Of a stretch of DNA of 52,659 nucleotides, positions 1,535 to 49,834 are shown piece by piece. Where the stretch lies: NCBI GenBank assembly GCA_001816915.1, contig MHCL01000026.1, positions 45,501-98,159 on the forward strand, in the 5' to 3' direction. Under the pieces are notes generated by a model, which was given only the letters and a program-made list of their open reading frames with translations, was not told where the DNA came from and made no database searches. The DNA comes from Candidatus Chisholmbacteria bacterium RIFCSPLOWO2_01_FULL_49_14. Lineage in GTDB: Bacteria; Patescibacteriota; Microgenomatia; UBA1400; Chisholmbacteraceae. Each line of letters opens with the position of its first letter. The stretch's first letter is position 1. Made by a program: the position numbers and the translations under genes.

Positions 1535-2299
1535 ATGTCGATCTTTAACACACTTCTCTATCAGCCGATTCTTAAGGTTTTGGTCTATTTAACCCATCTG
1601 CTTGGTGGAAGCTTCGGTCTGGCAATTATTGCCCTGACGCTGCTCATCCGTTTGGTGTTGATACCGTTAACCCTGCCTGCGATGAAATCAGCGCAAAAAA
1701 TGAAAGAGTTGAAGCCCCGCCTGGATGAACTAAAAAAGAAACACGCAAAAGACAAGCGACAGCTGCAGATAGAACAACTGAATCTTTACAAAGAACAAGG
1801 CATCAACCCGGCAGCCGGCTGTCTCCCCACAATCGTTCAATTTGCCATCCTCATTGCGATGTACAGGGTATTTATTGATTTTATCCAAAATGGAAATGGG
1901 GAATCCCTCATGGCCAACATGCAGTTCTTTTGGCTCGATCTCTCAAAACCGGACCGTCTCCATATTCTCCCGATTCTCGCGGGGGCGACTCAGCTCATCC
2001 TCTCGCAAATGCTGATGACGGCGAAAGAACATCACGAAGCCAAGGAATTGACGAAAGAAGCGCAAAAGAAAGAAAAAACCAAAGGGGAAGATACCCAGGA
2101 AATGGCGGAAACACTTCAGCAACAGATGCTCTATGTCATGCCGGTGATGACGGGCTTAATAGCCTGGAATCTACCCTCAGGGCTTGCGGTCTATTGGGTG
2201 GTCACCACGATATTTTCGCTGGTTCAGCAATATATCATGAGTGGACCGGGAGGCTTGGCCACGCTTCAGGCAAAATTATTGAGGAGGCAACATGGCTGA
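1535..2299 (+). CDS. yidC: YidC/Oxa1-family membrane protein insertase (short form)
   Basis: 254 aa. Matches are LLIRLVLIPLTLPAMKSAQKMKELKPRLDELKKKH, LYKEQGINPAAGCLPTIVQ and LPSGLAVYWVVTTIFSLVQQ. Conserved synteny. Confidence 0.85.
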   Translation: MSIFNTLLYQPILKVLVYLTHLLGGSFGLAIIALTLLIRLVLIPLTLPAMKSAQKMKELKPRLDELKKKHAKDKRQLQIEQLNLYKEQGINPAAGCLPTIVQFAILIAMYRVFIDFIQNGNGESLMANMQFFWLDLSKPDRLHILPILAGATQLILSQMLMTAKEHHEAKELTKEAQKKEKTKGEDTQEMAETLQQQMLYVMPVMTGLIAWNLPSGLAVYWVVTTIFSLVQQYIMSGPGGLATLQAKLLRRQHG

Positions 2300-11285: not shown

Positions 11286-13625
11286 TTATGCAGATCTGTC
11301 AGGCCATGGGGAAGAAATCAGGAGATCTGGATGTAATTCCTTTCTCTTCTTTTTCGGGTTCGCCTCCTGAAGCTGCTGGTAGGCAGCCTCGGTGATAAAC
11401 GGAACAAAGGGATGCATGAGTTTCAGAAAAACAATAAGACCCTGAAGCAAAGCATTATTGCTGATCTCCTGCTTTTTGTTCCGTTCGATGCATTCATCAC
11501 AGAACCAATGCCAAAACTCGTTATAGACGGTTTCAGCAGCCAATCCGATCCGAAAATGATCAAGCTGATTTGTGACGGTATCAACCACCTTCGATAACTG
11601 TTGAAAGAATCGATCATCCGCTTTTGATATCTGAGAATGTGAAGTTCCATTGGGTTTCGTGCTTCGTGCTTCGTGCTTCGTGCTTTCCCGTTTCATGAGA
11701 ATGAAACGGGCAGCATTCCATATTTTATTCGTCAGATTCCTCATTGCGCGAACGTCACCCTCACCGACACTTTTATCTTGCCCGGCTGTCGAACGGATGA
11801 CCAGTGCCATCCGCAAAGCATCCGCTCCGTAAATTGAAGTGACGTCAAGGGGATTGATGATGTTTCCCAAACTCTTGCTCATCTTCCGTCCTTGCTCATC
11901 GCGAATGAGTCCATGCAGATAGACGGTGCGGAAGGGAACAGAGCCGGTCCGATAGAGCCCCATCATGAGCATCCGCATGACCCAAAAGATCAAGATGTCG
12001 TAAGCGGTTTCCATGACGTCTGTTGGGTAAAATCGCTGAAAGTCATCCTGTTTCTCCCGTGTGCTTTCGGTTTTTCCTGCTGTCTTCCCGCGTGACGCTT
12101 GAAGCGTCACCGCCGGCCATTGAGCTGAAGAAAACCAAGTATCGAAAGTATCGGTTTCCTGAAGGTAGTGATCTCCGGGAGGTGTAGGGGAGACAATGTA
12201 ATCAGCGTCAACGGGAGCTCGCAACGACTGTAGCCCGCCCTTGATTTCCGTAAGCGTGTAATCATTCAAGAGTGTTCCGACCTCGCCAGTCACGAGATTT
12301 TTCTTTCGGTTCAAAAAAGAAACGAAGATGTTATTATTTTGACTTTTGACTTTTGACTTTTGACTTTGAATCTTGTACCACACCGGCATTCGGATACCCC
12401 AAACGATCTGGCGGCTGACATTCCAATCTTTGAGATTCTCAAGCCAATGTTTGAGCGTCTTCCCGTACCCGGCGCCGAAGACGGTAACCTGTTTTTGTTG
12501 AAGAGACTGCAGAGTTTTCTGAACTAATGGTTCAACCTTGATAAAAAATTGCGGCAGAGGCAACGGCTCAATCGGAGTCCTGCACCGGTAGCACACACCG
12601 AGGATATGTCGGTACTGTTCGTCCACCTTAGTCAGGAGTCCTTGAGCTTGAAGATCACGGACCACAATCTCTCTTCCTTTCTTGACCGGCAAACCTGCAT
12701 ACTTCCCGGCAGGCGTACTGAGTTTTCCGTCAAAGCCGATGACTTGCTTTGGCCCCGGTATCTCATCGCGGTGCCGCAGCCAGACTTCAAAGTCATTGGG
12801 GTCGTGTGCCGGAGTGATTTTGACCACACCGGTTCCGAATTCCGGATCCACATAGTCGTCGGCGATCACGCGCATCCTAAATTGACCCAGCAACCCTTTG
12901 ACTTCGACTTCTTTTCCGATCCACTGCTTGTAGCGCGGGTCTTTTGGATTGACAGCCACCGCCGTATCTCCGAACTTGGTCTCCGGCCGCACAGTCGCCA
13001 GGGTAAACGGACCATACTTCATATAGTAGAGCGGGGTGATTTGTTCAACATGCTTCACCTCAAGATCGGAAAATGCCGTACCGCAATGGGTGCAAAAGTT
13101 GACGAGCCTTAGATCCCGATACACCAAACCATCGCGATGCAGTTGAAAGAACGTATCAAGAACCATCCGGACCACATTCTCATCAAGCGTGAAGGTGAAC
13201 CTGGACCAGTCTGCGCTTGCGCCCAGTTTCTTCATTTGCTCAGTCGCCACACCCTTGTTTTCTTGGACGTAATCCCAAATCATCCGGAAGAGGCTTTCCC
13301 TGTCATAGTCCATCCGGCTTTTTCCCTGTTTCTTGAGTTTCTTTTCAAACACAAATTGAGTTTCGATTCCGGCATGATCGGCTCCGGGAAGCCAGAGGCA
13401 AGCCCGGCCGCGCATGCGCTGGTAGCGAATGAGAATGTCCTCAACGGTCACAAACATCGCGTGTCCGATATGCAGGGGATCATTGGCATTTGGGGGAGGC
13501 ATGATGATGCAGTACGGCTTGGCGCCTTTTTTTTGAGAAGGAGCAAACGCGCCGCTTTGTTCCCAAAGCGCGTAAATGCGTTCCTCGTGATCGCTATGCG
13601 TGTAGCGTTTTTCCATATGTCTCAT
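11286..13625 (-). CDS. valS: Valine--tRNA ligase
   Basis: 779 aa. HIGH-type motif PPPNANDPLHIGHA, KMSKS motif KMSKSLGN, DTFDTWFSS, and editing-domain TGVVKITPAHDPNDFE. Confidence 0.95.
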   Translation of the reverse strand: MRHMEKRYTHSDHEERIYALWEQSGAFAPSQKKGAKPYCIIMPPPNANDPLHIGHAMFVTVEDILIRYQRMRGRACLWLPGADHAGIETQFVFEKKLKKQGKSRMDYDRESLFRMIWDYVQENKGVATEQMKKLGASADWSRFTFTLDENVVRMVLDTFFQLHRDGLVYRDLRLVNFCTHCGTAFSDLEVKHVEQITPLYYMKYGPFTLATVRPETKFGDTAVAVNPKDPRYKQWIGKEVEVKGLLGQFRMRVIADDYVDPEFGTGVVKITPAHDPNDFEVWLRHRDEIPGPKQVIGFDGKLSTPAGKYAGLPVKKGREIVVRDLQAQGLLTKVDEQYRHILGVCYRCRTPIEPLPLPQFFIKVEPLVQKTLQSLQQKQVTVFGAGYGKTLKHWLENLKDWNVSRQIVWGIRMPVWYKIQSQKSKVKSQNNNIFVSFLNRKKNLVTGEVGTLLNDYTLTEIKGGLQSLRAPVDADYIVSPTPPGDHYLQETDTFDTWFSSAQWPAVTLQASRGKTAGKTESTREKQDDFQRFYPTDVMETAYDILIFWVMRMLMMGLYRTGSVPFRTVYLHGLIRDEQGRKMSKSLGNIINPLDVTSIYGADALRMALVIRSTAGQDKSVGEGDVRAMRNLTNKIWNAARFILMKRESTKHEARSTKPNGTSHSQISKADDRFFQQLSKVVDTVTNQLDHFRIGLAAETVYNEFWHWFCDECIERNKKQEISNNALLQGLIVFLKLMHPFVPFITEAAYQQLQEANPKKKRKELHPDLLISSPWPDRSA
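11657..11684. repeat. Perfect tandem heptamer (TCGTGCT x4 on +; AGCACGA x4 on the coding strand) inside valS
   Basis: Read directly from the sequence. Translated in frame as STKHEARSTK within the C-terminal region of ValRS. Confidence 0.9.
12337..12375. repeat. Tandem heptamer (TTTTGAC x4 then TTTGAATCTTG on +; GTCAAAA on the coding strand) inside valS
   Basis: Read directly from the sequence. Translated as KIQSQKSKVKSQNNN just after the conserved PVWY segment. Confidence 0.9.
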
Positions 13626-13677
13626 ATTATAGCGATAAAATCAGAAAATATTAGGCAAAGCGGAGGGGGACGTGCGG

Positions 13678-14808
13678 TTATTCCGCTATCGTCAGTCCGG
13701 GATCAATAGCCACTCTTGTCCATGGAGTAGGGGAGAATCGGTAGAAAGCCGAAGCCGCAACGGATGCGGCGTTATCTGTACACAGCTCAACGGGTGGAAT
13801 AAAGAGGGCAATTTCGAATTTCAAATTTCGCCTGCCCGCTTGCCCGACCTTTGGCGTGGCCCCTTTGGAGGGAATTTCAAATTTTAACCGTTGGCGTAGC
13901 CTGCGGTTAGCAGCCACACCTCCGGCAACCAAGACCGATTTCGGTCGATACTCATTGATCGCCCGAGCAAGCTTTGTAATAAGAACCTCACAGATTGCTT
14001 CCTGCGCCTCTTGAGCAATAGCCCGAACCAATTGACCGGAAGGCTTTCGACCGCTCAATTGTCGCATGACAGCCGATTTTAACCCACTGAATGAGTAATC
14101 ATATTCCTCACTATCCATCATCGGCCTCGGTAAAGAAATTTTGAATTTTGAATTTTGAATTTTGAATTTCTCCGCCTCAGCGGCAATGGCCGGTCCGCCG
14201 GGATAAGCCAAACCCAGCATCCGCGCGATTTTATCAAACGCTTCACCCGCGGCGTCATCTCGGGTGCTTCCCAGCCGTTCGATATCCTCGTGAGAATGCA
14301 TCAGCACCAGATCGGTGTGCCCTCCCGAAACAACCAGCCCGAGCGCCGGAAACTCAGGTATCTTTGTATTTGTATTTTGAGATTTAAGATTTCGAAATTG
14401 TTTCGAATTTCGTGCTTCGGATTTCGATTTTACGCCGACCCAATTGGCGTACAGGTGTGCAACCAGGTGATTGACGGCAAGCAGGGGTTTTCCCCAAGCC
14501 AAGGCAAGTACCCTGGCGGTTTCAACCCCGACCAGCAGACTTCCGGACAAACCCGGGCCGGCGGTCACGGCGATGGCGTCGATATCTTGGAGTCGTATTT
14601 TGTGCAGCGCTTCGGACAGAACAGGAAGGAGCAGCTCAATTTGCTTGCGAGCCGCTACCTCGGGGACAATGCCGCCGGTATTTTGGTGGAATTCCTGGGA
14701 ACTGGCAACGGCTTGAGAAAGAACGATAACCTTCCGATCAATTGCCGTTCCTTCTACCACAGCCGCAGCTGTTTCATCACACGACGTTTCAATTCCTAGT
14801 ATTTTCAT
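13678..14808 (-). CDS. tsaD: tRNA N6-adenosine threonylcarbamoyltransferase TsaD (Kae1/Qri7 family), carrying three repeat-derived insertions
   Basis: Matches are MKILGIETSCDETAAAVV, GPGLSGSLLVGV, LGLVVSGGHTDL, DDAAGEAFDKIARMLGL, VAGGVAANRRLR and CTDNAA. Confidence 0.9.
   Translation of the reverse strand: MKILGIETSCDETAAAVVEGTAIDRKVIVLSQAVASSQEFHQNTGGIVPEVAARKQIELLLPVLSEALHKIRLQDIDAIAVTAGPGLSGSLLVGVETARVLALAWGKPLLAVNHLVAHLYANWVGVKSKSEARNSKQFRNLKSQNTNTKIPEFPALGLVVSGGHTDLVLMHSHEDIERLGSTRDDAAGEAFDKIARMLGLAYPGGPAIAAEAEKFKIQNSKFKISLPRPMMDSEEYDYSFSGLKSAVMRQLSGRKPSGQLVRAIAQEAQEAICEVLITKLARAINEYRPKSVLVAGGVAANRRLRQRLKFEIPSKGATPKVGQAGRRNLKFEIALFIPPVELCTDNAASVAASAFYRFSPTPWTRVAIDPGLTIAE
13809..13887. 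repeat. Composite repeat inside tsaD: 13-bp direct repeats GAATTTCAAATTT (13816-13828, 13872-13884) flanking a 43-nt GC-rich core
   Basis: The direct repeats are perfect and 56 nt (8 x 7) apart. The core holds CCTTTGG twice, 14 nt apart. Translated as LKFEIPSKGATPKVGQAGRRNLKFEI. Confidence 0.85.
14135..14170. repeat. Tandem heptamer GAATTTT (3 perfect + 2 variant units) inside tsaD
   Basis: Reads gaaatttt gaatttt gaatttt gaatttt gaatttc. The coding strand AAAATTC is translated as KFKIQNSKFKIS. Confidence 0.9.
14362..14432. repeat. Degenerate heptad-phased AT-rich block (about 10 units) inside tsaD
   Basis: Reads tttgtat|ttgtatt|ttgagat|ttaagat|ttcgaaa|ttgtttc|gaatttc|gtgcttc|ggatttc|gatttta. 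Translated as KSKSEARNSKQFRNLKSQNTNTK ahead of the conserved LGLVVSGGHT. Confidence 0.75.
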
Positions 14809-14867
14809 AGGTAGTCAAGCAGTATCACTTGCCCCGTGGATTTTCCGAATGTACATATCTACGGTCC

Positions 14868-16700
14868 CTAGATACTGCCGGTACCGCGCAGAAACACCGA
14901 TTGCCAAGGTCGAAAGTTAGAATAAAAGGTTTTTTCATAAATGGTTGCTCCGTCTCGGCTGACGCTGTAGTCGAATTTAACCTTGGCGCCCCAAGCCTTC
15001 CAATCGACCTGCTTGACGGAACCGGCAGGCAGAGTCGGATCATCTTGATAGAGATCGGGAGGCGGGGGAGACACATCCCACACCCTATGGTTGGCAATAG
15101 ACGAAACGCGCCCGTCGGAAGTCCCATAGATCTCAAACACAAGGGTATTTGCGGCGGTATCGGTTTCTGTTTGGATGAGCAGGTGCCCGGGAGTATCATT
15201 GAGTATTTTTAAATCCACCCGCGGTGCAAAGACGGTCGCATCAAACCCCGGCTTGCTGTTTTGTTCATAGTACGACACCCGGTAGCTGTGTGCCGTTCGT
15301 TCTGAGATGGGAAGCCCGGCCTCAAGAGCGGCTCGAAACAGCGTCGTTGAAACCTGGCAGACACCGCCTCCGTCATCAAGGATGGTTCGCCCTTCTTTGA
15401 TGATGTATGCCTGGCGATAACCGGTAGCCGCGGAAATATCGCCCACAGTTGCATTAAAAGAAAAGACTTCCCCCGGTGCAATCAGTACGCCGTTAACCCG
15501 GGAAGCGGCGAGAGCGATGTTATGTTCACGGTTGGCAATTGACCCATGAAAAGTGGTTACCCCGCGACCGAGAAGCTCCCGAATCCCGAGGTTGTTGACT
15601 TCCGAAGTGCTGATTTGGGCTAGGGTGACCGAGACCGGAAGCGAGAGAGTCATCTCCGGCTCTTCGCTCATCTCCAGTTCGGAAAATGTCCGGGTGAGCG
15701 CGTCCGTAGTCCCGGAAGTGTTGATCGTCAGCCCGTTCTGCTCCGGGGAAAACTCGACGACCCGCCCATCCCGAAAGGCGAATGTTGCGTTGACGGGTTG
15801 CCGATCGATGCTCTCTGCAAGCGTTGCGGAATAGGAGGCTATTTTTTCTGTATCAAACCCTCCGTCAAAAGACAGAAAATGAACAATCTCTTCACCCGTT
15901 AATTCCCAACGCAGCGCTTCGTGGGAATTCTCGGCATAGGAAAGCACGACCGTGCGATCAAGCAGTCGCTCCGCCCGCATCGTGGTCAGCGCCGGATCGA
16001 TGGCGGCATCCGAGGAATTCAGAGAAATGGCGCGCAAAACGACGGGTTCTTGAGATAAAGTAAAAAAACGTTCATGCAGGGTGCGCCGGAGGGAAGAGAC
16101 ATCGAGTTGTAGTCCTGCTTCACCCGCTTCCACCTTGATACGGGAATGCGTCTGCGGGTCGGGAGCTGCAAGAACCTCAAGTGAAGGCGGGATGCTGGGA
16201 ACATTGACGGCCGAAGCAACGGCCGAGATGCTGGATTCAAGCACCTGTTCATCAAGGGGGTAGCGCAGGGGCAAATCCTTCCCCTCCTCAAGGATCCCAA
16301 GTAGGGGTGGTAAACCGAAGAAAGCTTCATTTCGTCCGGAGAGGTAGGCGGCGCGAACGCTCAGCGAAAGTTCATAGGAAAGCGAAAGTTGGGAGGGTTC
16401 AATCGTCCACCTTTGCTCATCGTATGAGAGGGAGAGGGGAGACTCCAGAAACTCAGCGCTGCGGTTCGAGAGAATTTCATTCGCGCGCTCCGGAGAAAGC
16501 CCCCCGATCGCGATCCCGGAAATGCTGATTCCGGGAAATATTTTCCCGCGCCATAGTAAACGATAGGAAAAGAAAATAAACGAAAGAACAATAAGCATGA
16601 CGGCACTGGCGGCTCCAAAACGGCGCAGCCAAAGATGGGTGCGGAAGACTGCAACAACTCGACGCATAGGCCTTACTATATCATGGGTTGCAGCGTACAC
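14868..16700 (-). CDS. VanW-family protein (N-terminal TM anchor, C-terminal VanW domain)
   Basis: GGGVCQVSTTLFRAALEAGLPISERTAHSYRVSYY is the VanW core; TM is AASAVMLIVLSFIFFSY. Confidence 0.8.
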   Translation of the reverse strand: MYAATHDIVRPMRRVVAVFRTHLWLRRFGAASAVMLIVLSFIFFSYRLLWRGKIFPGISISGIAIGGLSPERANEILSNRSAEFLESPLSLSYDEQRWTIEPSQLSLSYELSLSVRAAYLSGRNEAFFGLPPLLGILEEGKDLPLRYPLDEQVLESSISAVASAVNVPSIPPSLEVLAAPDPQTHSRIKVEAGEAGLQLDVSSLRRTLHERFFTLSQEPVVLRAISLNSSDAAIDPALTTMRAERLLDRTVVLSYAENSHEALRWELTGEEIVHFLSFDGGFDTEKIASYSATLAESIDRQPVNATFAFRDGRVVEFSPEQNGLTINTSGTTDALTRTFSELEMSEEPEMTLSLPVSVTLAQISTSEVNNLGIRELLGRGVTTFHGSIANREHNIALAASRVNGVLIAPGEVFSFNATVGDISAATGYRQAYIIKEGRTILDDGGGVCQVSTTLFRAALEAGLPISERTAHSYRVSYYEQNSKPGFDATVFAPRVDLKILNDTPGHLLIQTETDTAANTLVFEIYGTSDGRVSSIANHRVWDVSPPPPDLYQDDPTLPAGSVKQVDWKAWGAKVKFDYSVSRDGATIYEKTFYSNFRPWQSVFLRGTGSI

Positions 16701-16726
16701 TCGCAGAGTGTTATGATAATTGAGTT

Positions 16727-18373
16727 ATGCCTGACCCGAAGGACAATACACCTCCGGCCCTTGGCCAACCAAGCATCTCCCCACAGCTCCCCAGTCAAGA
16801 GAAACCTGCTTTGGGAAAACCGGAGCCTGTGGTTGAGCCGGAATTGCCGACACTGGATATGAAATCAACCTCGCGTACCATTGGCGGCCAGTCAATACAG
16901 CCGGACCCGATGTCTTCCTTGGAGAAAGAAAAACCATTTGTGCCGCCTCCGCCTCCTCCACCGCCTCGATATGTTCCGCCCCCCCCTCCGCCTGCTTCGT
17001 CAACTGTGGCCTCGCAAACGGCGCCTCCCCCAGCCGAAAGCCCGCAAGTCACGCCGCCCAAACGATCCGGAAATATCAAGAAATTTTTCATGATCGCGGC
17101 GGCGGCGATCGGCTTATCCGCTCTGGCGTTTTTGATCGTACGGGTGGTTCTTCCCAGAATCCAGTCGATAAAAGTTCCCGGTTTACCGGGAAAGGAGATT
17201 GCCTTAACCTACTGGGGTCTTTGGGAACCGAATGCCGTCATGCAGGACGTCATCGACGAGTACGTACTGGATCACCCGAATGTGAAGATCGAATATGTTC
17301 AGCAAAGTCATAAAGACTACCGTGAAAGACTGCAGTCGGCATTGGCTAGGGGAGAGGGGCCGGACATTTTCCGCTTTCACAACACATGGGTGCCAATGCT
17401 CAATGATGATCTCGACGCGGTCCCTGCCGATGTCTATAGCGCCGGCGATTTTCAGGAAACCTTCTATCCGACGGCAGCCAGGGATCTCCGCCGCGGTGCG
17501 AGTTTCGTCGGCATACCCTTGGAAACGGACGGATTGGCACTCTTTTATAACAAAGAAATCTTTAAAACCGCAGGGAAAATACCGCCAACCACCTGGGAGG
17601 ATCTGAGGAAGACCGCGTTCGATTTGACGATACGGGACAGTCAGGGACGCATCCAGCGTGCCGGAGTTGCTCTGGGAACTACAGGGAACGTCGATCACTG
17701 GCCGGATATTCTTGGCCTCATGATGTTGCAGAACGGCGCCAACCTCTCCGATCCGACGGACAAGCTCGCTGCCGACGCCCTACTGTTTTACACGATCTTT
17801 GTCCGATCGGATAAGGTGTGGGATGCAACGCTTCCCGGATCAACCCAAGCCTTTGCGTCCGGAGACGTCGCGATGTATTTCGGTCCGTCCTGGAGGGTGT
17901 TGGACATCAAAGCCTTAAACCCCGATCTGGACTTTGCGGTTATTCCCGTTCCGCAATTGCCCAAGTCCGACATCACCTGGGCCTCCTATTGGGTAGAAGG
18001 GGTATCCGCTCAATCCGAGAACACCAAGGATGCCTGGGAGTTTCTCAAGTTCCTCTCCTCAAAAGAAACGTTGGAAAAATTCTATGCCTCGGCAGTGAAG
18101 TCGGGAAGAATGATCGGCGAACCATATTCACGAAAAGATATGCGAGAATTGCTTGCCGATGATCCGGCCGCGGGAGCCTATGTGAATCAGGCATCCAACG
18201 CACAATCTTGGTATCTGTCATCACTGACCCATGATAATGGGATCAATGACCGCATCATTAAATATTTTGAAGACGCGGTCAACGCGGTGAATCAACGAAC
18301 CGATCCGGAACAAGCGCTCTCCACCGCAGCCGAGGGAGTCAGTCAAGTCCTCACCCAGTACGGGATCAAATAA
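16727..18373 (+). CDS. Extracellular solute-binding protein (ABC SBP family 1-like) with Pro-rich N-terminus and TM anchor
   Basis: Poly-Pro tract PPPPPPPPRYVPPPPPP and TM FFMIAAAAIGLSALAFLIV. SBP_bac_1-like features are LTYWGLWEPN ... GEGPDIFRFHNTWVP ... GIPLETDGLALFYNKEIF ... TWEDL. The true start is uncertain. Confidence 0.65.
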   Translation: MPDPKDNTPPALGQPSISPQLPSQEKPALGKPEPVVEPELPTLDMKSTSRTIGGQSIQPDPMSSLEKEKPFVPPPPPPPPRYVPPPPPPASSTVASQTAPPPAESPQVTPPKRSGNIKKFFMIAAAAIGLSALAFLIVRVVLPRIQSIKVPGLPGKEIALTYWGLWEPNAVMQDVIDEYVLDHPNVKIEYVQQSHKDYRERLQSALARGEGPDIFRFHNTWVPMLNDDLDAVPADVYSAGDFQETFYPTAARDLRRGASFVGIPLETDGLALFYNKEIFKTAGKIPPTTWEDLRKTAFDLTIRDSQGRIQRAGVALGTTGNVDHWPDILGLMMLQNGANLSDPTDKLAADALLFYTIFVRSDKVWDATLPGSTQAFASGDVAMYFGPSWRVLDIKALNPDLDFAVIPVPQLPKSDITWASYWVEGVSAQSENTKDAWEFLKFLSSKETLEKFYASAVKSGRMIGEPYSRKDMRELLADDPAAGAYVNQASNAQSWYLSSLTHDNGINDRIIKYFEDAVNAVNQRTDPEQALSTAAEGVSQVLTQYGIK

Positions 18374-18452
18374 CTCTCCGCTTTTGCCTTGAAGATATCC
18401 GACGCCCACGAAGGAAGCAATCGCCGTCGCGTGTTATCATAAACTCCGGAAT

Positions 18453-19457: not shown

Positions 19458-19482
19458 GAGAATAAACTGTAGGTATACGTGA

Positions 19483-20004
19483 ATGGTTAACCAAAAGCAA
19501 GTGAAATTTTCCCTGGAAGAGGCTATCGCCCGCCGCTCATCCCTCGCATCCGGACAAATTGTTACGCTGGCAACCGGAGTCTTTGACATTCTTCACATCG
19601 AGCACCTGCGTTTTCTCAGGCGGGCCAAACAACAGGGGGACATATTATTTGTCGGTATCGAACGGGATCGAAGAGTGCGCCAGCTCAAAGGGAGGGGAAG
19701 GCCGGTCAATTCCGAAATGCATCGCGCGCAGGTCATAAGCGCGCTCAAATCGGTTGATTGTGTCTTTCTGCTTCCGGATGACATGGAGGACCAAGCAGGG
19801 AGGGAGAGGGTCATCCAGAAACTCAAACCGGATATCTATGCCGTGAGCGCCAACACCCCCTATTTGCAGGAAAAAGAGAAAATCATCAAAAAGTTCGCAG
19901 GTCAGTTGAGGGTTGTCCATCAGCACAACCCGAACATCTCCACGACCAAGATTATTACCGCCAAGCGAAATCATCGCAGAAGAGTAAGATCAGCCAATAT
20001 ATAA
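19483..20004 (+). CDS. Cytidylyltransferase-family nucleotidyltransferase (RfaE domain II / TagD-like)
   Basis: ATGVFDILHIEHLRFLRRAKQQGDILFVGIERD ... GRPVNSEMHRAQVISALKSVDCVFLL; H-x-x-H motif with Rossmann-like layout. Confidence 0.7.
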   Translation: MVNQKQVKFSLEEAIARRSSLASGQIVTLATGVFDILHIEHLRFLRRAKQQGDILFVGIERDRRVRQLKGRGRPVNSEMHRAQVISALKSVDCVFLLPDDMEDQAGRERVIQKLKPDIYAVSANTPYLQEKEKIIKKFAGQLRVVHQHNPNISTTKIITAKRNHRRRVRSANI

Positions 20005-20821: not shown

Positions 20822-20843
20822 AATGGAGTGTTGTAAACAACAC

Positions 20844-30265: not shown

Positions 30266-31350
30266 TTATGTATGAGTCACATACATATGAGACTCTGGAA
30301 GATTTTTCAGCAAATAGTCAATGGGTGTTTGATTGCCCAGCGACCGATGCACCCGTTTGGTATTGTACCAAACAAGGTAGTCCATCAGCTTTCGGTTAAA
30401 GACACCGAGATCTTCTAAGAGATATTCAAGGTGGCTGTCAATGAACTCTTCCTGTAGCGTCCTGTTGGCCCTTTCCACAAAGGCGTTGATCTTGGGACAC
30501 CTGGGGTAGATGTACAGGTGCTTGATGCCCCTTCTCCTGAGGTAAGCGGCCAAGGCTCCTTGGTATTCAAGCCCGTTATCTGTCTGGATGATCTTGATCC
30601 CGCGTTGCAAAGGATAGACCAGCTCAAGTTTCCCAACAAAGTCCACTGCAGTCTTGCTGGAGAGCCTTGAGTACCCGTACGAGAAGGTGAATTTCAGCTT
30701 GATGTCGATGGCATTGAAGATGTAGAAGCGGATGCCGTGGACCAACCTGGTGATGGTGTCGATCTCCAGGTAGCCAGAGCCTTCCGGTCGAGGGGAATGC
30801 TTGATTTTGGCTTTGAAGATCCTCTTCTTTCCGGCAAAACCGCTTCCCGGGTTATGGTAGATCCGCCGCTGTGGGGAAGAGAACAGGCGGTGTCGCTTGA
30901 TGACGTTGCCGATGGTGGATGTGGAAATCGTCGGGACCCCCTCTTCCCTGCAGAACGCATCCAACAGCGGCTTGATCTTCTCTTTCCCGAGGCGATGGTG
31001 GTCTTCCCGCAGCTGCGCAATGAAGGCGACAACCTGGGGATGCGTCTCCATGACCCGCTTCCGTTGGGGGGCCCTTGAATGCGGAAGGAGGGACTGGAGC
31101 TTCCCTTGCGCTTGGGACAACCTCCCCTCTTCCAGCGGTAGATGGTGGCCTTTGACACCGTATAGGCATCACGAGTCGCCTGGGTGCCGTACCTGGCATG
31201 GAAGCTGAGGACGGTCAACCGGTACTGGGCAAGCTCACTGGCGGAAAATCTGTTGGTGGAAATGATTGAGTTCATCACAGAGGGATTATACAGGGCAGAT
31301 CCGTACACCCCCTGCCGAACATGGGTTGGGATCCCAACTCTTCCACGCAT
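30266..31350 (-). pseudogene. IS481-like transposase, HTH part and DDE part in different frames
   Basis: Frame A from 31350: ...NRFSASELAQYRLTVLSFHARYGTQATRDAYTVSKATIYRWK (HTH). The -1 frame from about 31130: EEGRLSQAQGKLQSLLPHSRAPQRKR ... LGKEKIKPLL ... YLEIDT ... IIQTDNGLEYQG ... NAFVERANRTLQEEF ... YNTKRVHRSLGNQTP. The junction lies in the purine run GGAAGAGGGGAGG. Confidence 0.7.
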
Positions 31351-33476: not shown

Positions 33477-34199
33477 TCATCTGGAAATATTGTCATACTC
33501 CTCTATATAGCCTCTGTATTTTTCGTATTTCCTTGCCAGGTACGGAGCTTTGTCTAATTCGGTGTACATGAATGAGAGGATTTTCAAACAATTCCCTTTC
33601 CTATAGCGAAGCCTGAAAGCTCGGTGGCTCTTACGGATTCTCATGTGAGAAGTATCGATTGCTGAACGTAAATTTTGCATAAGCACATACAGATACTCAT
33701 AACTACCACTGGTAAATATCACTTGAATATTCGGCCACCTTCTCCCATCTGGAGTTTCGACATTAACGCATCCATCTCCATCAAAGTAGCCACGAATGTA
33801 GAAATTGAGATAGTCTGACGGTATTTCAGGAAAGTGCATAGTTTTTGACTTATTAGGTGTCAAGCCTTTATCAACTAAATCTTGATACATGAGCTTGTTC
33901 CCTATTCTAAGTGTAAACAAATCTGAGCATAGATATCGCTTACCAAAAAATAATCTAGATTGTGAGCGCCGCATAGAAATAGCATGTTTTGAAGAAAGTG
34001 CAGTTCGGACATTCTCAAGTAGTTCCTTATCGACACTAGAAAGCTGAAGATAACAAGTTCTTGAAGATTGACGGACATCTTCTACAGCCCCATCCGCATA
34101 GATGAGCCCCAAGACATAAGCCATTTGAGGAGACCAAGTTTTGAAGAAATATTCATTGACACCCTTCCGATTATGGCCACCCCGAGGGTCACGATACAT
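33477..34199 (-). CDS. Free-standing double-motif LAGLIDADG homing endonuclease
   Basis: Motif 1 is YVLGLIYADGAV and motif 2 is IRGYFDGDGCV, in 240 aa. The DNA is visibly AT-richer than the neighbours. Confidence 0.8.
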   Translation of the reverse strand: MYRDPRGGHNRKGVNEYFFKTWSPQMAYVLGLIYADGAVEDVRQSSRTCYLQLSSVDKELLENVRTALSSKHAISMRRSQSRLFFGKRYLCSDLFTLRIGNKLMYQDLVDKGLTPNKSKTMHFPEIPSDYLNFYIRGYFDGDGCVNVETPDGRRWPNIQVIFTSGSYEYLYVLMQNLRSAIDTSHMRIRKSHRAFRLRYRKGNCLKILSFMYTELDKAPYLARKYEKYRGYIEEYDNISR

Positions 34200-42660: not shown

Positions 42661-43671
42661 TCACATACCAATATACCCGTATCTTCTATTCCTTTCATCA
42701 ATATTATTTAGCACCTTCAGCGTATCTTTCACTCTCTTTGCATGTTTTAAGTAAGGACGAACCATTCTTGTAAAATTAAAAAGATCAGCTTTCCGATCAA
42801 CGCTGAGAATCCTATAGTCATTGTTGTGAGCATAACCATCTTTTCCTCGGTAACCCTTCTTTACACCGATAAACAGCCTACTTCTAACTCCTAACTTTTC
42901 TAAAGCACTTCGTATCTGCTCCAGTAAAGTTACATTATAGTTCCCAACCGAGAAAGTTGCTGCCTTTCCATTGCTGGTCACAAAGAAACTTCCTTCTGCG
43001 TCGATGAAACCCACCAGAAGGGGAAGAAACAATGGCTTTTTCTCTAAACCCCAAGTAGGAAACCTATCAAAGTTTTCAAGCAAAAAAGAGAAAGACAAGT
43101 CAACAGCACACTCTATCTGTAATTTTCCTGACTTGGTGGGTTTGCTTATCCATACTCTTCCATATTGCGAAAATAACGACTTGATCAATTCGATCTGGCT
43201 TTTCTTTGTTGACCCACAATCAACTAAGATTGTTTCACTATTTTTATACATCTTCCTCACCCGTAAGTCTCCTATTCTAAAACCAATCAGATAAGCTTTT
43301 TCTTGTTGATTTCCAGAAAATGGAGCCCTGAAGGTTGTGATATGCGCAAGAGATAGTGTCTTTTTCGCAAGTCCATACTGTTTAATTTTTCTATCAACAG
43401 AAGAATAAGCACATTCATAAATCTTTGCAATCTTTCTGCTCGACAAACCTTTGTGTAGATACAATTCATACAAATCCTTTTTGGAAATATGTACTCTAGG
43501 AGGCCCAGGAGTGCGCGGAGGAATGCCACACTCCACCATCCTAATAGAGATAGTTCTAGCAGCATACCCCAATAGGCTACCAATTTCTTTAATTGTAAGA
43601 CAATCTTCCCAATACAATTTCTTCAAAGTTTGTTGAGAAATAGAGAATCTTTTAGCTTTCATAGGAACCAT
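42661..43671 (-). CDS. LAGLIDADG homing endonuclease with two N-terminal HTH modules
   Basis: LAGLIDADG motifs are YLIGFRIGDL and LLVGFIDAEGSF. The duplicated N-terminal HTH-like units are LTIKEIGSLLGYAARTISIRMVECGI and LSSRKIAKIYECAYSSVDRKIKQYGL. The DNA is AT-rich and the stop lies 15 nt from the metG start. Confidence 0.75.
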   Translation of the reverse strand: MVPMKAKRFSISQQTLKKLYWEDCLTIKEIGSLLGYAARTISIRMVECGIPPRTPGPPRVHISKKDLYELYLHKGLSSRKIAKIYECAYSSVDRKIKQYGLAKKTLSLAHITTFRAPFSGNQQEKAYLIGFRIGDLRVRKMYKNSETILVDCGSTKKSQIELIKSLFSQYGRVWISKPTKSGKLQIECAVDLSFSFLLENFDRFPTWGLEKKPLFLPLLVGFIDAEGSFFVTSNGKAATFSVGNYNVTLLEQIRSALEKLGVRSRLFIGVKKGYRGKDGYAHNNDYRILSVDRKADLFNFTRMVRPYLKHAKRVKDTLKVLNNIDERNRRYGYIGM

Positions 43672-45829: not shown

Positions 45830-48800
45830 ATGAAAGACGATCTGGTCCTGAATAAGAAACAAAAAGAAGCGGTGGAATTCCGCCAGGGACCATTGTTGAT
45901 CGTCGCCGGCGCCGGAACCGGAAAGACGACAGTCATCACGGAACGCATTAAATTCCTCATTCGCTCCGAAGCCGCGTCACCAGCACAGATATTGGCATTG
46001 ACCTTCACAGAGAAAGCAGCGCGTGAGATGGAAGAAAGGGTTGATATCGCCATGCCCTATGGATACACGCAAATGTGGATCTCAACCTTTCACGCATTCG
46101 GCACGCAAATTCTGCGCCGGGAAGCGTTGCATATTGGCCTCAATCCAAATTACAAGCTCATGACGGAGGCGGAGGCGATTCAAGTGATCCGTCGCAACCT
46201 TTTCCAATTCAAACTGAACTATTTCAGGCCGCTGGGGAACCCGACTAAATTTGTCGGCGGGCTACTCCAGCACTTCTCAAGGTTACAGGATGAGGATGTG
46301 GGTCCTTCCGAATATTTGAAGTTTGCGATGAGCTTGGGGAAGAAAGCAAACAAATCACGGGAGGAGAAGCTGGAAGTCGAAAAAACCTTAGAGCTTGCGC
46401 GAGCCTATCAACAATTCGGGGAGCTGAAAATCAAAGAGGGGTACATGGATTACGGCGACCTGATCGGTAACACCCTTTTGCTGTTTCGCAAACGCAAGAA
46501 CGTCCTGAAAACCTATCAAGAACAATTTAAATACATGCTGGTCGATGAATTCCAGGACACCAATTTTGCCCAATATGAGATGTTAAAACTTCTTGTTCCA
46601 CCCGGTAAACGGGCAAACTTGACCGTTGTCGGCGATGATTCACAGTGTTTGCCCCCCACCGCAATCATCGCAACCCCAGACGGAGGAAAAGCAATACAGG
46701 AAATAAACAGAAGAGATGAGGTAATCACCGCCATTGGGAAAGGCCACACTTCTGTCGCAAGGGTATCGCGAGTCTTTCGACGAAAAAGGAGAGCCCGGCT
46801 GCTTACGTTCAAAACCGAAGATGGAAAAAAAATCACGCTTACCGATAATCATAAGATGTTTTGTTTTCTCCCTGCGTACTACCCACTCACGGGCTGGCAC
46901 TTCGTCTACCTCATGCACCAGCAGGGAATCGGGTGGAGAATTGGCGTAACAAACAGCATCCCTCAGAGACTTCGACTCGAGACTCACGCCGACACAATTT
47001 TAGCGATAGGGTCATACAAGACAGATCAGGAAGCAAGATTCTTTGAGGCGTACTATGCTGCAAAATATGGTTTACCGACAGTCCCATTTACTGCTCGACC
47101 GAGACAAGCAATACGAGGAAAATGGTTAGCAAGATTATTTAGCGAAATTGATACAGAAGAAAACGCGCGCGTATTGGCGAAAGACTTGAATATCGAACTT
47201 GATTCCCCCCAATACTCGGTAGATGGCATTACCCGCGGAATCAGTCGTCGGGTAAAAGTCCATCTGTCGATGTGCCATAGGAACTACCGGAGTAAGTCGC
47301 ACAAAAAAGGCTTCGTCGGTAATCCGGGCATTTCACATCAGGTACACATTGAGACATCAAACACAAGGGTATTACGTATTCTGAAGAAGACTGGCTTCAA
47401 TCTTACGAAAGCGAAGAAAGGAAAACGATTCCGTTTTCAAACACCGGACCTGGAAAAAGCTTGGGAAGTTGCAACGGAACTCACGCGATTAACGGGTGGC
47501 ATCATGGACAAAAAATTCGTTGTCGGACGCTATAATTATCAGCATCTTCCGACCAGAATTGTACCGGCAAGCCACATTCTTCCTGGAATGTATCTTCCCA
47601 CACTGAAGGGAAAACAGATTGAATATAAAATGGTAGTTTCTCGGAAAGAGGAAGAAAGAACGATAGAAACGTACGATTTAGAAGTTAAAAAGACGTACAA
47701 CTTCATTGCAGACGGAATAGTCGTCCACAACTCAATCTATAAATTCAGAGGCGCCGCGGTATCAAACATCCTGCACTTCAGGGATGACTACAGGCAAGCA
47801 AAAACAGTGGTACTCACCGAGAACTACCGATCGACGCAAAGCATCCTCGATCCCGCATACCGCTTAATTAACCACAACAATCCGGACACGTTGGAGGTAA
47901 AGTTGGGTATGAAAAAAAACTTGGTAAGCAGACGCGATCCCCATGGAGGAAAACCGGTCAAATTCATCCACACCGATCGAGTGGAAAATGAGGCTGATAC
48001 GGTCACTAAAAACATCATGGAGCATATAAAAGGAGAGGAATATGAATATAAGGATATTGCAATCCTGGTACGCGCCAATAATCATGCCCAATCGTTCATG
48101 CGGGCTTTGTCAAGGCATGGAATACCATATCAGTTTTTAGGACCGGGCAGGCTTTTCAAACAACCGGAGATCATTGACCTCATTTCATACCTCAAAGTCC
48201 TCTACGATTTTGAAGACTCAATTGCCCTCTATCGGCTGTTATCCATCGAGCAGTTTGAAATTCCTGTCAAAGAACTCATCAAGGTGAACAATCTTGCCAG
48301 AAGAAAGAATCTCACACTCTACGAAGCATGCGAAAATCTGAAGGATATCTCCATTTCACAAACAGCACGCAAGAAAGTCAGGCAAATCTTGGAAATCATC
48401 GAAAAGCAACTGAAGCGTACGAGAAACGAAACGGCAGGCCAGCTCCTGTTCGATTTTCTCCAAGAATCAGGGTTGTTAACGAAGCTTTTAAACCCGAAAA
48501 ACGTGGAAGCAGAAAAAAAGGCTGCCAATATCTCAAAATTATTCGACAGGCTTAAGAGCTTTGAAGCGGGTCATGAAGACGCCACCGTTTCGGCAGTTGT
48601 CGATTGGATTGAGCTGGCAAGTGAATTGGGAGAGTCTCCGCTTGCCGCGGACACGGACTGGACAAAGGTGAACGCCGTCAATCTCTTGACGGTGCATTCG
48701 GCAAAGGGGCTGGAATTTCCCATCGTCTACCTCACAAACCTGGTCTCCCAGCGCTTTCCGACCATTGAACGCAGAGAACAGATACCGATTCCCGAGGCAC

Positions 48801-49834
48801 TGATTAAAGAAGAACTTCCTTCAGGGGATTATCACCTTCAGGAAGAACGCCGTCTCTTCTATGTCGGGATGACCAGAGCCAGAGACAGCCTCGTGCTGAG
48901 TGCGGCAGATTACTACGGTGACGGCAAGCGTGGGAAAATAATTTCCCCATTCGTCTTTGAGGCACTCGGAGACAGAGTGCTCTCGGCAGAACGAGAAGAG
49001 GATGGCAACCAACTCACATTTTTGGATTACTCATCATCCGAGCCTGCAGCCGTAAACCATGAACCTTCAAGGCTGCACGTCGATTATCTCTCCTACTCTC
49101 AGATTGAGACGTTTAGATTCTGCCCGTTGCACTATAAACTGAAATACCTGTTGAAACTTCCTTCTCCCCCATCGGGCGCTTTGAGTTTCGGCACATCATT
49201 GCACGCCGCGCTCAAAGAGATCTATTCTGCCGTCATACGGAGCGAGAAAGTGAGTTCCAAATACGCAATTGAGTCCTTGAAAAAGAATTGGATATCGGAA
49301 GGCTACAGCGGGAAGAAACACGAGCATCGGATGTTTGAGAAAGGAGAAAAGTATCTGACGAATGTGCTCAAAGAAGAAGCAAAATCAAAGAAAAAACCGG
49401 TAGCACTGGAACAGCAATTCATCGTTCCGCTGACGACTGACAGGGGGAAACATCCGTTCTTAAAGATCGGAGGAAAAATTGACCGGGTTGACGAAATTGA
49501 CGGAGGGGGAATTGAGATCATAGATTACAAAACAGGGGAAAATCCTCCTACGCAGCGTCAGGTTGATCATGATTTGCAGTTAACTTTTTACGCGCTTGCA
49601 GCAGTAAATATCAGAGAATTCCCCTTTGGAAGAAAAGCGGATGATATTAGCCTCACCCTCCATTATTTATATGGGAACAGGAGAATGACGACAACAAGAA
49701 GTTTGCAAGAACTCGAAAAAGCGAAGGAAGATATATTTTCTTGGCGGGAGAAGATTGAAGCTTCAGACTTTTCCTGCTCCAAACAGCCACTCTGCGAGAA
49801 ATGCGAATACGCGTTTCTCTGCCGAGCAGAATAA
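45830..49834 (+). CDS. UvrD/PcrA-type SF1 helicase fused to a C-terminal Cas4/AddB-like PD-(D/E)XK nuclease with a 4-Cys cluster; interrupted by an intein
   Basis: Helicase motifs: I AGAGTGKT, Ia LALTFTEKAAREM, II DEFQDTN, III VVGDDSQ/SIYKFRGA (split), V/VI TVHSAKGLEFP, LFYVGMTRAR. Nuclease: FCPLHYKLKY ... IDRVDE ... IEIIDYKTG ... QLTFYA ... CSKQPLCEKCEYAFLC. Confidence 0.9.
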   Translation: MKDDLVLNKKQKEAVEFRQGPLLIVAGAGTGKTTVITERIKFLIRSEAASPAQILALTFTEKAAREMEERVDIAMPYGYTQMWISTFHAFGTQILRREALHIGLNPNYKLMTEAEAIQVIRRNLFQFKLNYFRPLGNPTKFVGGLLQHFSRLQDEDVGPSEYLKFAMSLGKKANKSREEKLEVEKTLELARAYQQFGELKIKEGYMDYGDLIGNTLLLFRKRKNVLKTYQEQFKYMLVDEFQDTNFAQYEMLKLLVPPGKRANLTVVGDDSQCLPPTAIIATPDGGKAIQEINRRDEVITAIGKGHTSVARVSRVFRRKRRARLLTFKTEDGKKITLTDNHKMFCFLPAYYPLTGWHFVYLMHQQGIGWRIGVTNSIPQRLRLETHADTILAIGSYKTDQEARFFEAYYAAKYGLPTVPFTARPRQAIRGKWLARLFSEIDTEENARVLAKDLNIELDSPQYSVDGITRGISRRVKVHLSMCHRNYRSKSHKKGFVGNPGISHQVHIETSNTRVLRILKKTGFNLTKAKKGKRFRFQTPDLEKAWEVATELTRLTGGIMDKKFVVGRYNYQHLPTRIVPASHILPGMYLPTLKGKQIEYKMVVSRKEEERTIETYDLEVKKTYNFIADGIVVHNSIYKFRGAAVSNILHFRDDYRQAKTVVLTENYRSTQSILDPAYRLINHNNPDTLEVKLGMKKNLVSRRDPHGGKPVKFIHTDRVENEADTVTKNIMEHIKGEEYEYKDIAILVRANNHAQSFMRALSRHGIPYQFLGPGRLFKQPEIIDLISYLKVLYDFEDSIALYRLLSIEQFEIPVKELIKVNNLARRKNLTLYEACENLKDISISQTARKKVRQILEIIEKQLKRTRNETAGQLLFDFLQESGLLTKLLNPKNVEAEKKAANISKLFDRLKSFEAGHEDATVSAVVDWIELASELGESPLAADTDWTKVNAVNLLTVHSAKGLEFPIVYLTNLVSQRFPTIERREQIPIPEALIKEELPSGDYHLQEERRLFYVGMTRARDSLVLSAADYYGDGKRGKIISPFVFEALGDRVLSAEREEDGNQLTFLDYSSSEPAAVNHEPSRLHVDYLSYSQIETFRFCPLHYKLKYLLKLPSPPSGALSFGTSLHAALKEIYSAVIRSEKVSSKYAIESLKKNWISEGYSGKKHEHRMFEKGEKYLTNVLKEEAKSKKKPVALEQQFIVPLTTDRGKHPFLKIGGKIDRVDEIDGGGIEIIDYKTGENPPTQRQVDHDLQLTFYALAAVNIREFPFGRKADDISLTLHYLYGNRRMTTTRSLQELEKAKEDIFSWREKIEASDFSCSKQPLCEKCEYAFLCRAE
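46646..47731 (+). mobile_element. Intein (362 codons) inserted in helicase motif III
   Basis: The N-extein ends VVGDDSQ. The intein starts CLPPTAIIATPDG (block A). Block B is ITLTDNHKMF (T-x-x-H). The C-terminus is TYDLEVKKTYNFIADGIVVHN, followed by +1 Ser (SIYKFRGA). Confidence 0.88.

Follow-up and report, generated by a model that had tools for sequence, protein, structure and literature searches.

How does additional DNA enter the coding sequence of an essential and conserved gene without breaking it? This question is raised by the tsaD gene of Candidatus Chisholmbacteria bacterium RIFCSPLOWO2_01_FULL_49_14, which lies in a stretch of 52,659 nucleotides (nt) of contig MHCL01000026.1 (assembly GCA_001816915.1; this whole stretch is hereafter the window). 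A first-pass annotation had described a composite element inserted in frame in tsaD, in which 13-bp direct repeats bracket a 43-nt GC-rich core, and had proposed either an origin like that of a miniature inverted-repeat transposable element (MITE) or a nested insertion into a pre-existing array of 7-nt units (heptads). Our analysis indicates that the block, at a position of tsaD designated site B, is not one composite element but three layers, namely a heptad array, a 21-nt cassette (E1) inserted into that array, and a second 21-nt cassette (N) nested within E1. In our favoured reading, the cassettes are moreover tolerated pieces of DNA that are copied between heptad arrays. We give this statement as a whole a probability of about 50%; the anatomy taken alone we hold with high confidence.

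A layered block in the tsaD gene

The first layer at site B is a (GAAATTY)5 array, which is read in frame and encodes the connector LKFEIRNSKFEI, which joins the GGVAAN helix of TsaD to its CTDN strand. The second layer is E1 (CCCTCCAAAGGGGCGGGCAGG), a GC-rich cassette located exactly at the boundary of heptad units 2 and 3, which gives the junctions ...GAAATT / CCCTCC...GGCAGG / CGAAATT.... The third layer is N, which is related to E1 and interrupts it. E1 and N together make up the core of the window (13831-13872, minus strand; CCCTCCAAAGGGGCCACGCCAAAGGTCGGGCAAGCGGGCAGG), the bounds of which were set by the empty-site alleles of relatives. The GC-rich core between the 13-mers is present as annotated, but it measures 42 nt and not 43 nt.

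The sequence facts reported at first pass all held. The 13-mer GAATTTCAAATTT occurs exactly two times in the window (13816-13828 and 13872-13884, 56 nt apart), and CCTTTGG lies at 13848 and 13862, with a spacing of 14 nt. The block is translated as LKFEIPSKGATPKVGQAGRRNLKFEI, flanked by GGVAANRRLRQR and ALFIPPVELCTDNAA, and its two copies of LKFEI are separated by 63 nt; the junction peptides of the insert include FEIPSK and NLKFEIALFIPPVELCTDNAASVAASAFYR. Period 7 is the sole enriched short period in the window, with four strict runs at lag 7 versus none at the other lags from 3 to 12, so this periodicity is not a chance effect. Tandem Repeats Finder returned rows at 13810-13830, 14137-14169, 11656-11685, and 12337-12367. 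With at least three head-to-tail 7-nt units and enrichment over other periods, the site-B array qualifies as a heptanucleotide simple sequence repeat (SSR).

The relationship between the two cassettes was assessed by alignment. When rotated by 1 nt, N aligned with E1 better than all 2000 composition shuffles (p < 0.0005), which identifies N as a related cassette nested in E1. A local template for N in the adjacent tsaD sequence was also considered and rejected, since its 13/15 match to GGCTACGCCAACGGT reached only p = 0.10-0.14 against shuffles within +/-400 nt. Likewise, the absence of stop codons from all six frames of the core is no sign of adaptation, because 41% of composition-matched shuffles are open in the same way.

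Relatives carry 0, 21 or 42 nt at site B

Close relatives were obtained from a protein search (83-99% identity), with the corresponding DNA designated loci L001, L002, and L003, and the alleles were delimited by a nucleotide multiple alignment together with pairwise alignments of the window and these relatives. In L001 and L002, the site-B array is uninterrupted (TTAAAATT CGAAATT CGAAATT CGAAATT CGAAATT G), while in the window and L003 the second and third of the same five units are separated by exactly 42 nt. The heptad unit count is thus equal in empty and filled alleles, with no target duplication, and the junction is ambiguous by only 1 nt (C). The empty alleles keep the units that form the 13-mers, and in L003 the upstream unit of the pair differs by one base; the 13-mer pair therefore consists of array units, whose perfect match in the window is incidental, and represents neither a target duplication nor the ends of an element.

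An intermediate state was found as well. The same 90% protein cluster contains P0122 and P0125, with a protein identity of 99% and tsaD DNA that matches that of the window at 99.6% identity. In this DNA (loci L024 and L025), site B holds 21 nt only, which is the intact E1 cassette; the window allele contains 21 nt more, i.e. N, after CCCTCCAAAGGG, and this is its only site-B difference from L024 and L025. States of 0, 21, and 42 nt thus all occur among strains that are 89-99.9% identical, whereas outgroup TsaDs at 50-65% identity have no core at site B, which makes the insertion the derived state. These results bear out two elements of the first-pass annotation, the nested insertion into a pre-existing heptad array (filled alleles carry 21 or 42 nt more than the uninterrupted one) and the presence/absence polymorphism that it had suggested looking for in sister genomes.

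Short tandem repeats can mislead k-mer assemblers, and the data used here are contigs; nonetheless, an assembly or sequencing artefact of a repetitive region has a practically negligible probability. The core was seen in at least five assemblies made independently, with an identical 42-mer across those of NCBI, JGI, ENA, and SRA-derived origin. The ORF (open reading frame) is intact in all compared cassette alleles at site B, all alleles remain in frame in an essential gene, and the cassette sequences themselves are non-repetitive. The opposite polarity, in which the 14-residue loop would be ancestral and the shorter alleles independent slippage deletions, is very improbable. Flanking direct repeats that are in phase would ease precise deletion, and an unrooted four-taxon tree alone cannot polarise the change. 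However, all outgroup TsaDs are without the loop (a median segment of 18 versus 32 aa), a step from 42 to 21 nt would have to remove an internal block that has no heptad flanks, and deletion cannot place the identical 42-mer, or the related cassette E2, in another array of tsaD, as described below.

The core extends a predicted loop of an otherwise normal TsaD

The 376-aa ORF hosting the block is intact, and it matched Pfam PF00814 with E = 4.7e-77 (259.7 bits versus a cut-off of 24.8). Among PDB sequences, it matched bacterial TsaD chains best (E = 3e-64), and its AlphaFold2 model, with a mean pLDDT (predicted local distance difference test score) of 88, showed Foldseek TM (template modelling) scores of 0.82/0.91 to E. 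coli YgjD. Residues H114, H118, and D345 are invariant in the alignments. With a PF00814 match above threshold, the ASKHA fold, and both of the conserved metal-site motifs, HxxxH and CTDN, the gene belongs to the TsaD/Kae1/Qri7 family. The in-frame insertion in tsaD annotated at first pass is upheld as well. The protein is 100% identical to OGY16821.1/OGY19486.1 (Candidatus Chisholmbacteria, Patescibacteria/Candidate Phyla Radiation (CPR) lineage), and the nearest species-representative genomes by TsaD are Patescibacteria and Woesebacteria metagenome-assembled genomes (MAGs) with 51-59% identity.

A connector longer than that of E. coli TsaD had been noted, and a long connector was borne out: the window TsaD has 16 extra residues relative to T. 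maritima TsaD, and its connector segment measures 32 aa compared with a median of 18 aa among 120 TsaD homologues. By comparison, the connector of the core-free allele exceeds that of T. maritima by only about 2 aa, which means that the heptad array largely substitutes for the ordinary helix end and connector and adds little. The first-pass annotation had missed this replacement, the composition of the core as two nested 21-nt cassettes, and two further heptad sites in tsaD.

In the AlphaFold2 model, residues 312-333 form a loop between helix 302-311 and strand 334-336, and the 10-residue blocks over aa 311-330 have a mean pLDDT of 71 and 55. This loop lies 10-12 residues ahead of the invariant C343-T344-D345-N346 motif, the Asp of which is, in TsaD/Kae1, a ligand of the catalytic metal. 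The model thereby predicts that the 42-nt core adds 14 residues to a low-confidence surface loop in an otherwise normal TsaD fold. Both -1 frameshifting at the core and its translational bypass were rejected on inspection: the AAATTTG heptamer located upstream is out of phase, no take-off site is followed by a stop codon, and the insert is plainly in frame.

Cassettes in other arrays of tsaD

The identical 42-mer is also present at a second heptad array of tsaD, site A, in L001, although the tsaD gene of L001 is only 89.4% identical to that of the window; at this divergence, the chance of 42/42 matches by descent is about 0.009. Site A of L025 holds the cassette E2 (CCCTCCAATTCGGCGGGCAGG), which is 18/21 identical to E1 and lies one heptad unit beyond the insertion point in L001, with the same junction phase. 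At a third site, site 1, L024 holds E3 (ACCAAGTCAAACTTGGTCAAG), a 21-mer hairpin. E1 is translated as PSKGAGR at site B, and its relative E2 as LQFGGQA at site A. The DNA rather than the peptide is thus conserved, which marks the cassettes as DNA-level entities. The positions and allelic states of these features are listed in Table 1.

The comparison of closely related strains showed how quickly cassettes come and go. The tsaD genes of L024 and L025 differ by one substitution (1109/1110 identical) but by two cassettes. This sole substitution adjoins E2 and changes CAAAATT to CGAAATT, the unit seen directly after E1 at site B. The window and L024, which are 98.97% identical over 3.8 kb, show no indels other than two of 21 nt, both in tsaD arrays, and between the window and L001 (5.7 kb), the only coding indels are two 42-nt events. 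Cassette gain or loss between strains is therefore at least as fast as single substitutions over the whole gene. Because these cassettes are whole numbers of heptads, their gain or loss keeps both the array register and the reading frame. Furthermore, strain identity alternates between blocks of 98-99.8% and 90-95% (window 13067-20912 versus L025; 11260-15060 versus L024), and this mosaic points to frequent homologous recombination in this Chisholmbacteria population.

Table 1 Features of the tsaD locus in window positions, with their basis or their state in relatives
Feature	Positions	Strand	Basis or state in relatives
tsaD coding sequence, 376 aa, host gene	13678..14808	minus	ORF; Pfam PF00814; PDB TsaD chains; AlphaFold model
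Site-B array, upstream part, coding strand TTAAAATT TGAAATT, encodes LKFEI	13873..13887	minus	same two units in empty L001/L002 alleles
E1 5' part, CCCTCCAAAGGG	13861..13872	minus	intact E1 in L024 and L025
Cassette N, 21 nt, GCCACGCCAAAGGTCGGGCAA, boundary ambiguous by 2 nt	13840..13860	minus	absent from L024/L025
E1 3' part, GCGGGCAGG	13831..13839	minus	intact E1 in L024 and L025
Site-B array, downstream part, CGAAATT TGAAATT CGAAATT G, encodes RNLKFEI	13809..13830	minus	same three units in empty and filled alleles
Site-A heptad array, (CAAAATT)4, encodes KFKIQNSKFKI	14135..14171	minus	empty in window; 42-mer in L001, E2 in L025
Site-1 heptad mosaic, aa 124-150	14355..14445	minus	empty in window; E3 in L024; (AGAGCAT)n-like array instead in L003

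Proposed homology-guided copying between heptad arrays

What could place the same cassette in two arrays of one gene? Our favoured answer is homology-guided copying between arrays by gene conversion or template switching, to which, as a mechanism in itself, we assign slightly less than even odds. Heptad arrays would serve as short portable homology arms, and a cassette flanked by heptad units could be copied by either process into another array, whether that array belongs to the same gene or to a homologous allele acquired from a related strain. As such arrays can align in any repeat register, insertions would occur at varying units but always in the same junction phase, without target duplication and with co-conversion of neighbouring unit variants. 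A cassette would be lost by the same process in reverse, or by slippage between the units on its two sides. As tsaD is essential, selection would then retain only those outcomes that keep the frame, within a loop that can accommodate extra residues. The cassettes themselves are best read as tolerated DNA-level passengers, to which no benefit for TsaD is assigned.

Copying of this kind would explain why alleles that have diverged by about 10% share an identical 42-mer in two different arrays, and why copies are scarce elsewhere. It would also account for the co-converted CGAAATT unit beside E2, for the constant phase at variable unit positions, and for the mosaic strain identity.

Several observations weigh against it. 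E2 differs from the E1 copy in the same genome at three clustered positions, so the donor of E2 was not simply site B of that genome, and no donor locus outside tsaD was found. N is nested in E1 without heptad arms and E3 lies in a non-uniform mosaic, so that arm homology fails for both. A further 21-mer, termed X and described below, is identical across lineages with 60%-identical TsaDs, in opposite orientations and beside different units, and one of its copies is free of any array. In addition, RecA-type recombination would ordinarily call for longer homology arms than the 7-20 nt available here, and the model gives no reason for cassette lengths in multiples of 7.

Heptad arrays and GC-rich inserts across Patescibacteria

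The same three to four loop sites of tsaD carry heptad arrays in other Patescibacteria, with lineage-specific units (AAGTTCA, AAATCTC, CAAATTC, AAGTTAA, and others). Among the 120 TsaD homologues, runs of four consecutive identities occurred 26 times at 7-residue spacing versus 0-6 times at other spacings. Over 14 CPR loci (the window, L001-L003, L005-L009, and L012-L016), the choice of which was partly biased to interesting alleles, period-7 arrays were about 25 times denser in tsaD than in its flanks (26 in 15.3 kb versus 10 in 152 kb); in five loci chosen regardless of allele, nine arrays were counted in tsaD versus three in the flanks. In the literature searched, no description of heptad repeats in Patescibacteria was found.

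Such an unexplained concentration at the same loops could be the mark of programmed TsaD loop diversification, for example as an escape from an inhibitor made by a phage, host or competitor, with silent archives and gene conversion in the manner of pilE/pilS. We regard this as highly unlikely. The array density at the same three to four loops in 14 CPR loci would fit, as would a cassette turnover at least as fast as substitution and a non-coding copy of site-1 sequence 6.5 kb away. Against this, neither an archive of E-type cassettes in the window nor a dedicated gene was found, and the locus choice was partly biased as stated. The variation could equally be neutral turnover in permissive loops, and in L012 tsaD is frameshifted within an array, which resembles collateral damage rather than design.

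Two of these loci display rearrangements of their own. In L012 (4160-4220; tsaD of P0011), the frameshift falls within the site-B heptad array (AAGTTTAAAGTTAAAAGTTAAATTG, with an in-frame TAA), and the conserved IPPPELCTDNAA resumes in the +1 frame; a slip by one unit, a pseudogene, and a population variant are all conceivable causes. In L013 (2530-2790; tsaD of P0009), an 80-aa insert at site 1 contains a partial duplicate of the native PEFPAxGLVxSGGHT segment beside heptad-coded residues, and it looks like a recombination scar.

In other lineages, too, GC-rich inserts occur within the heptad arrays of tsaD. The insert of L012 is 2 x 28 nt and that of L014 is 30 nt. L015 (site A, 4979-4999) and L016 (site B, 3894-3914) share the 21-mer X (CCTGCCTTGCCGGCAGGCAGG) without a single mismatch, in opposite orientations. 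The TsaDs of these two loci are 60% identical and show reciprocal gaps of 7-8 aa, and their array units differ. A copy of X with one mismatch lies in an unrelated ORF of L016 outside any array (1359-1379), giving two X copies in this 5.8-kb contig. X was found exactly in high-GC viral IMG/VR contigs (loci L017-L023) as well, where it encodes DLPAGKAG in three different ORFs and forms, in L020 and L022, a 42-nt perfect palindrome; its presence there could reflect a shared protein module. Over all instances, the cassette length is a whole number of heptads in 11/12, including the 56-nt insert that is not divisible by 3. Pairwise shuffle tests gave p < 0.0005 for E1-E2, E1-N, and N-E3, p = 0.0005 for N and a 33-nt hairpin insert of valS, p = 0.001 for E2-X, and p = 0.008 for E1-X. 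By sequence, E1, E2, N, E3, X, the L012 core, and the 33-nt hairpin insert can be linked into one loose family.

These data raise the question of whether the cassettes are mobile elements. They might be non-autonomous elements built of 21-nt modules, mobilised in trans by an enzyme from elsewhere in the genome, such as a single-strand transposase of the HUH/Y1 type or some other site-specific nuclease, that targets AT-rich heptad boundaries without target duplication. The shuffle-test relatedness of cassettes from different lineages speaks for this explanation, and so do the uniform 21-nt module, the constant ends CCYKCC...GGCAGG, the lack of target-site duplication, and the nesting of N inside E1. 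X adds further weight, being 21/21 identical in L015 and L016 with reciprocal presence/absence and opposite orientations, having an array-free copy with one mismatch, and recurring exactly and in frame in several IMG/VR contigs. The 33-nt hairpin insert family, which is found in valS of L003 and two times in tsaD of the distant MAG L005, points the same way. On the other hand, the copy number of E1, E2, N, and the 42-mer is very low, and none of the 40 window ORFs encodes a Y1 transposase or a RAYT (transposase associated with repetitive extragenic palindromes, REPs). E1, E2, and the 42-mer have no hairpin beyond that of shuffles, whereas REP-type substrates fold, and clean transposition would not be expected to co-convert a neighbouring heptad unit. 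On balance, we consider such elements rather unlikely, though they are the most serious rival of copying between arrays, which leaves N within E1, E3, and the sharing of X across lineages unaccounted for.

Copy number, folding, and comparison with known small repeats

The cassettes are rare wherever they were sought. At up to three mismatches, the 42-nt core occurs once in the 52.6-kb window, and a regular-expression search for the E family over the window gave no convincing further copy and no archive of E-type cassettes. In the window and the fetched relatives, E1, E2, and N were found only in tsaD arrays. A 24-mer of the core had no match in 185,579 GTDB species-representative genomes, and a 22-mer had one match in JGI metagenomes, which is the L001 contig. 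In IMG/VR, no matches were obtained for part of the 42-mer, E1, the E family plus flank, or the 33-mer. A six-frame peptide search of the core found that 17 of 5.8 billion proteins share words with it, none at E <= 10, which shows rarity alone. A high-copy dispersed element was accordingly rejected from the rarity in the window, the GTDB representatives, the JGI metagenomes, and IMG/VR, and the low copy number argues against a genome-wide transposon.

The first-pass annotation had suggested predicting the folding of the core. RNA and DNA folding of the 42-mer, on both strands and with and without flanks, was no better than that of shuffles (z from -0.7 to +0.9), and E1 and E2 likewise had z-scores of about 0; hairpins are formed, however, by E3, X, and the L014 30-mer. 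At the insertion site, neither an Rfam family nor a promoter or terminator signal was detected, and a functional RNA or DNA hairpin in the core was therefore rejected. A Pfam scan of the 40 window ORFs found no Y1/RAYT transposase. The only transposase-like ORF is an rve-family integrase, which has no sequence link to the cassettes.

A MITE-like nature of the core, one of the two origins proposed at first pass, is not supported, and the composite element with it falls; of that pair, only the nested insertion stands. The core ends, CCCTCC and GGCAGG, are not terminal inverted repeats (the reverse complement CCTGCC matches CCCTCC at 4/6 positions), the target is not duplicated given the five heptad units of empty and filled alleles, and there is neither a significant hairpin nor the high copy number with a related autonomous insertion sequence that is typical of MITEs, the core being present once in the 52.6-kb window and rare in public collections.

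REPs and their REPIN doublets are short non-autonomous palindromes mobilised by RAYT (Y1) transposases (PMC3116915). The tsaD cassettes resemble them as short, GC-rich, non-autonomous sequences without target duplication, and E3, X, and the L014 30-mer form hairpins. REPs, however, are extragenic and high-copy, form hairpin doublets, and lie beside a RAYT gene, none of which was seen for the tsaD cassettes: these are intragenic, E1, E2, and the 42-mer fold with z of about 0, there are no inverted doublets at the locus, and the 40 window ORFs scanned include no RAYT gene.

Rickettsia palindromic elements (RPEs) are selfish repeats of about 100-150 bp that sit in frame in many Rickettsia genes (PMC10969869). 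Here too, repeat DNA lies in frame within conserved metabolic or essential genes and is tolerated at fold-compatible positions. RPEs, by contrast, are spread over dozens of unrelated genes, whereas the 21-nt modules are concentrated in one gene and nested in heptads, and E1 and E2 are not palindromic. Moreover, the tsaD cassettes are 21-42 nt long and are read in different frames at different sites, unlike palindromes of about 100-150 bp with a conserved peptide.

In size, the cassettes come closest to another kind of repeat. Elhai et al. 2008 (Genome Res 18:1484) reportedly described small dispersed repeats (SDRs) of 21-27 nt in Nostocaceae, which are said to be mobile by inference and capable of nesting; PMC5861425 and PMC3116915 cite this work. 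One of them, SDR5, inserts into the short reiterated target HIP1 (PMC5861425). Compared by description, the tsaD cassettes share with SDRs a very small non-coding nature, a mobility inferred from presence/absence in relatives, and a short reiterated target, and a unit in the range of 21-27 nt with presence/absence between close relatives was observed. They differ in phylum and presumably in sequence, in lying in frame in essential genes, in their heptad target, and in their low copy number. Genome-wide dispersal was not seen, as E1, E2, and N occur in tsaD arrays only; the wider cassette family may be dispersed, given the two copies of X in a 5.8-kb contig.

Two further systems concern the arrays. 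Heptameric SSRs have been noted in bacteria (PMC4692102). The tsaD arrays are likewise short arrays of tandem 7-nt units enriched over other periods in the genome, but they are AT-rich, lie in ORFs at homologous loops of a single enzyme across a phylum, change in 21-nt steps, and host cassettes. In-frame tandem repeats in ORFs of Borg elements create disordered protein regions (PMC9879509). Both cases involve recent, rapidly evolving in-ORF repeats that add low-complexity or disordered segments; Borgs, in contrast, are archaeal extrachromosomal elements, while the unit of 7 nt seen here is not divisible by 3, the host gene encodes a core enzyme of bacteria, and the arrays have cassettes of non-repeat sequence nested within them. 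Overall, the tsaD cassettes share traits with each of the compared systems but fail defining tests of MITEs, REPs/REPINs, and RPEs with regard to terminal inverted repeats, target-site duplication, hairpins, an extragenic position, and copy number.

Other repeats and elements in the window and its relatives

Heptad arrays are also present in valS (11286..13625, minus), where two of them are in frame (plus-strand units (TTCGTGC)x4 at 11652-11687 and (TTTTGAC)x4 at 12335-12370). The first differs from that of L003 by exactly three units (21 nt), a copy-number change that keeps the frame. The valS gene of L003 further holds the 33-nt GC-rich hairpin insert mentioned above (CCCCACTTCGCCAGAGGCTTCGAAGGGGCATGG; 3954-3986), in frame and outside a heptad array, at a position corresponding to about 12190 of the window. 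Related 33-nt copies lie in tsaD of L005, one at 2697-2729 (25/33) and a second about 110 nt upstream; from these sequences, the insert looks like a second small in-frame insert family common to CPR lineages. At 1474-1523 of the window, upstream of a yidC-like gene (1535..2299), AT-rich period-7 arrays of the (AAGATTC/TAAGATT)-like and (TTAAACA)x4.6 types adjoin each other.

An intergenic inverted-repeat element at 20836-20990, about 150 nt long and made of mixed heptads, lies between yidC-like and SPFH genes, 6.5 kb from site 1. Over about 70 nt, the tsaD insert at site 1 runs collinear with both arms of this element, and the two share a 19-nt stretch as an exact inverted match. At site 1, tsaD thus appears to translate half of a MITE-like element of the heptad-mosaic type. 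The idea that the site-1 mosaic is an RPE-like element present in many proteins was rejected, as a six-frame peptide query found a TsaD fragment only.

The spacer upstream of tsaD varies as well. L003 has a 109-nt insertion there, opposite about 14853 of the window, in which the first ~32 nt of tsaD recur in diverged form (ATGAAAATTCTTGGAATCGAGACTAGTTGCGA), and indels of 53, 30, and 56 nt are found in L001 and L002. Elsewhere in the window, we observed an intein (Hint/Intein_splicing) in a UvrD-type helicase/PD-(D/E)XK nuclease (45830..49834), two LAGLIDADG endonuclease ORFs, one (33477..34199) beside the tRNA gene at 34265-34336 and the other (42661..43671) beside metG, and the rve-family integrase ORF at 30266..31120.

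Implications for CPR bacteria

The tsaD locus offers a nucleotide-level record of insertion in quanta of 21 nt, with empty, half-filled, and filled states, in an essential and conserved enzyme of an uncultivated CPR bacterium. A bolder view would see the heptad arrays of Patescibacteria as dedicated, register-keeping landing pads for a previously undescribed mechanism that writes, homogenises, and exchanges sequence in 7-nt quanta and preferentially targets three to four TsaD loops, swapping 21-nt cassettes more quickly than point mutation and producing phylum-wide hypervariation. We hold this to be quite unlikely; if it were true, the cassettes could be the cargo of such a system, or else, given that X is identical across lineages and is also present in phage contigs, the smallest known horizontally mobile elements. 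If the arrays act as homology arms or as targets of tiny elements, they would provide a new route for the gain and loss of loops in the proteins of reduced genomes. In practice, the annotation and phylogenomics of CPR marker genes call for caution, because heptad-coded segments and cassettes are not homologous residues and can frameshift genes.

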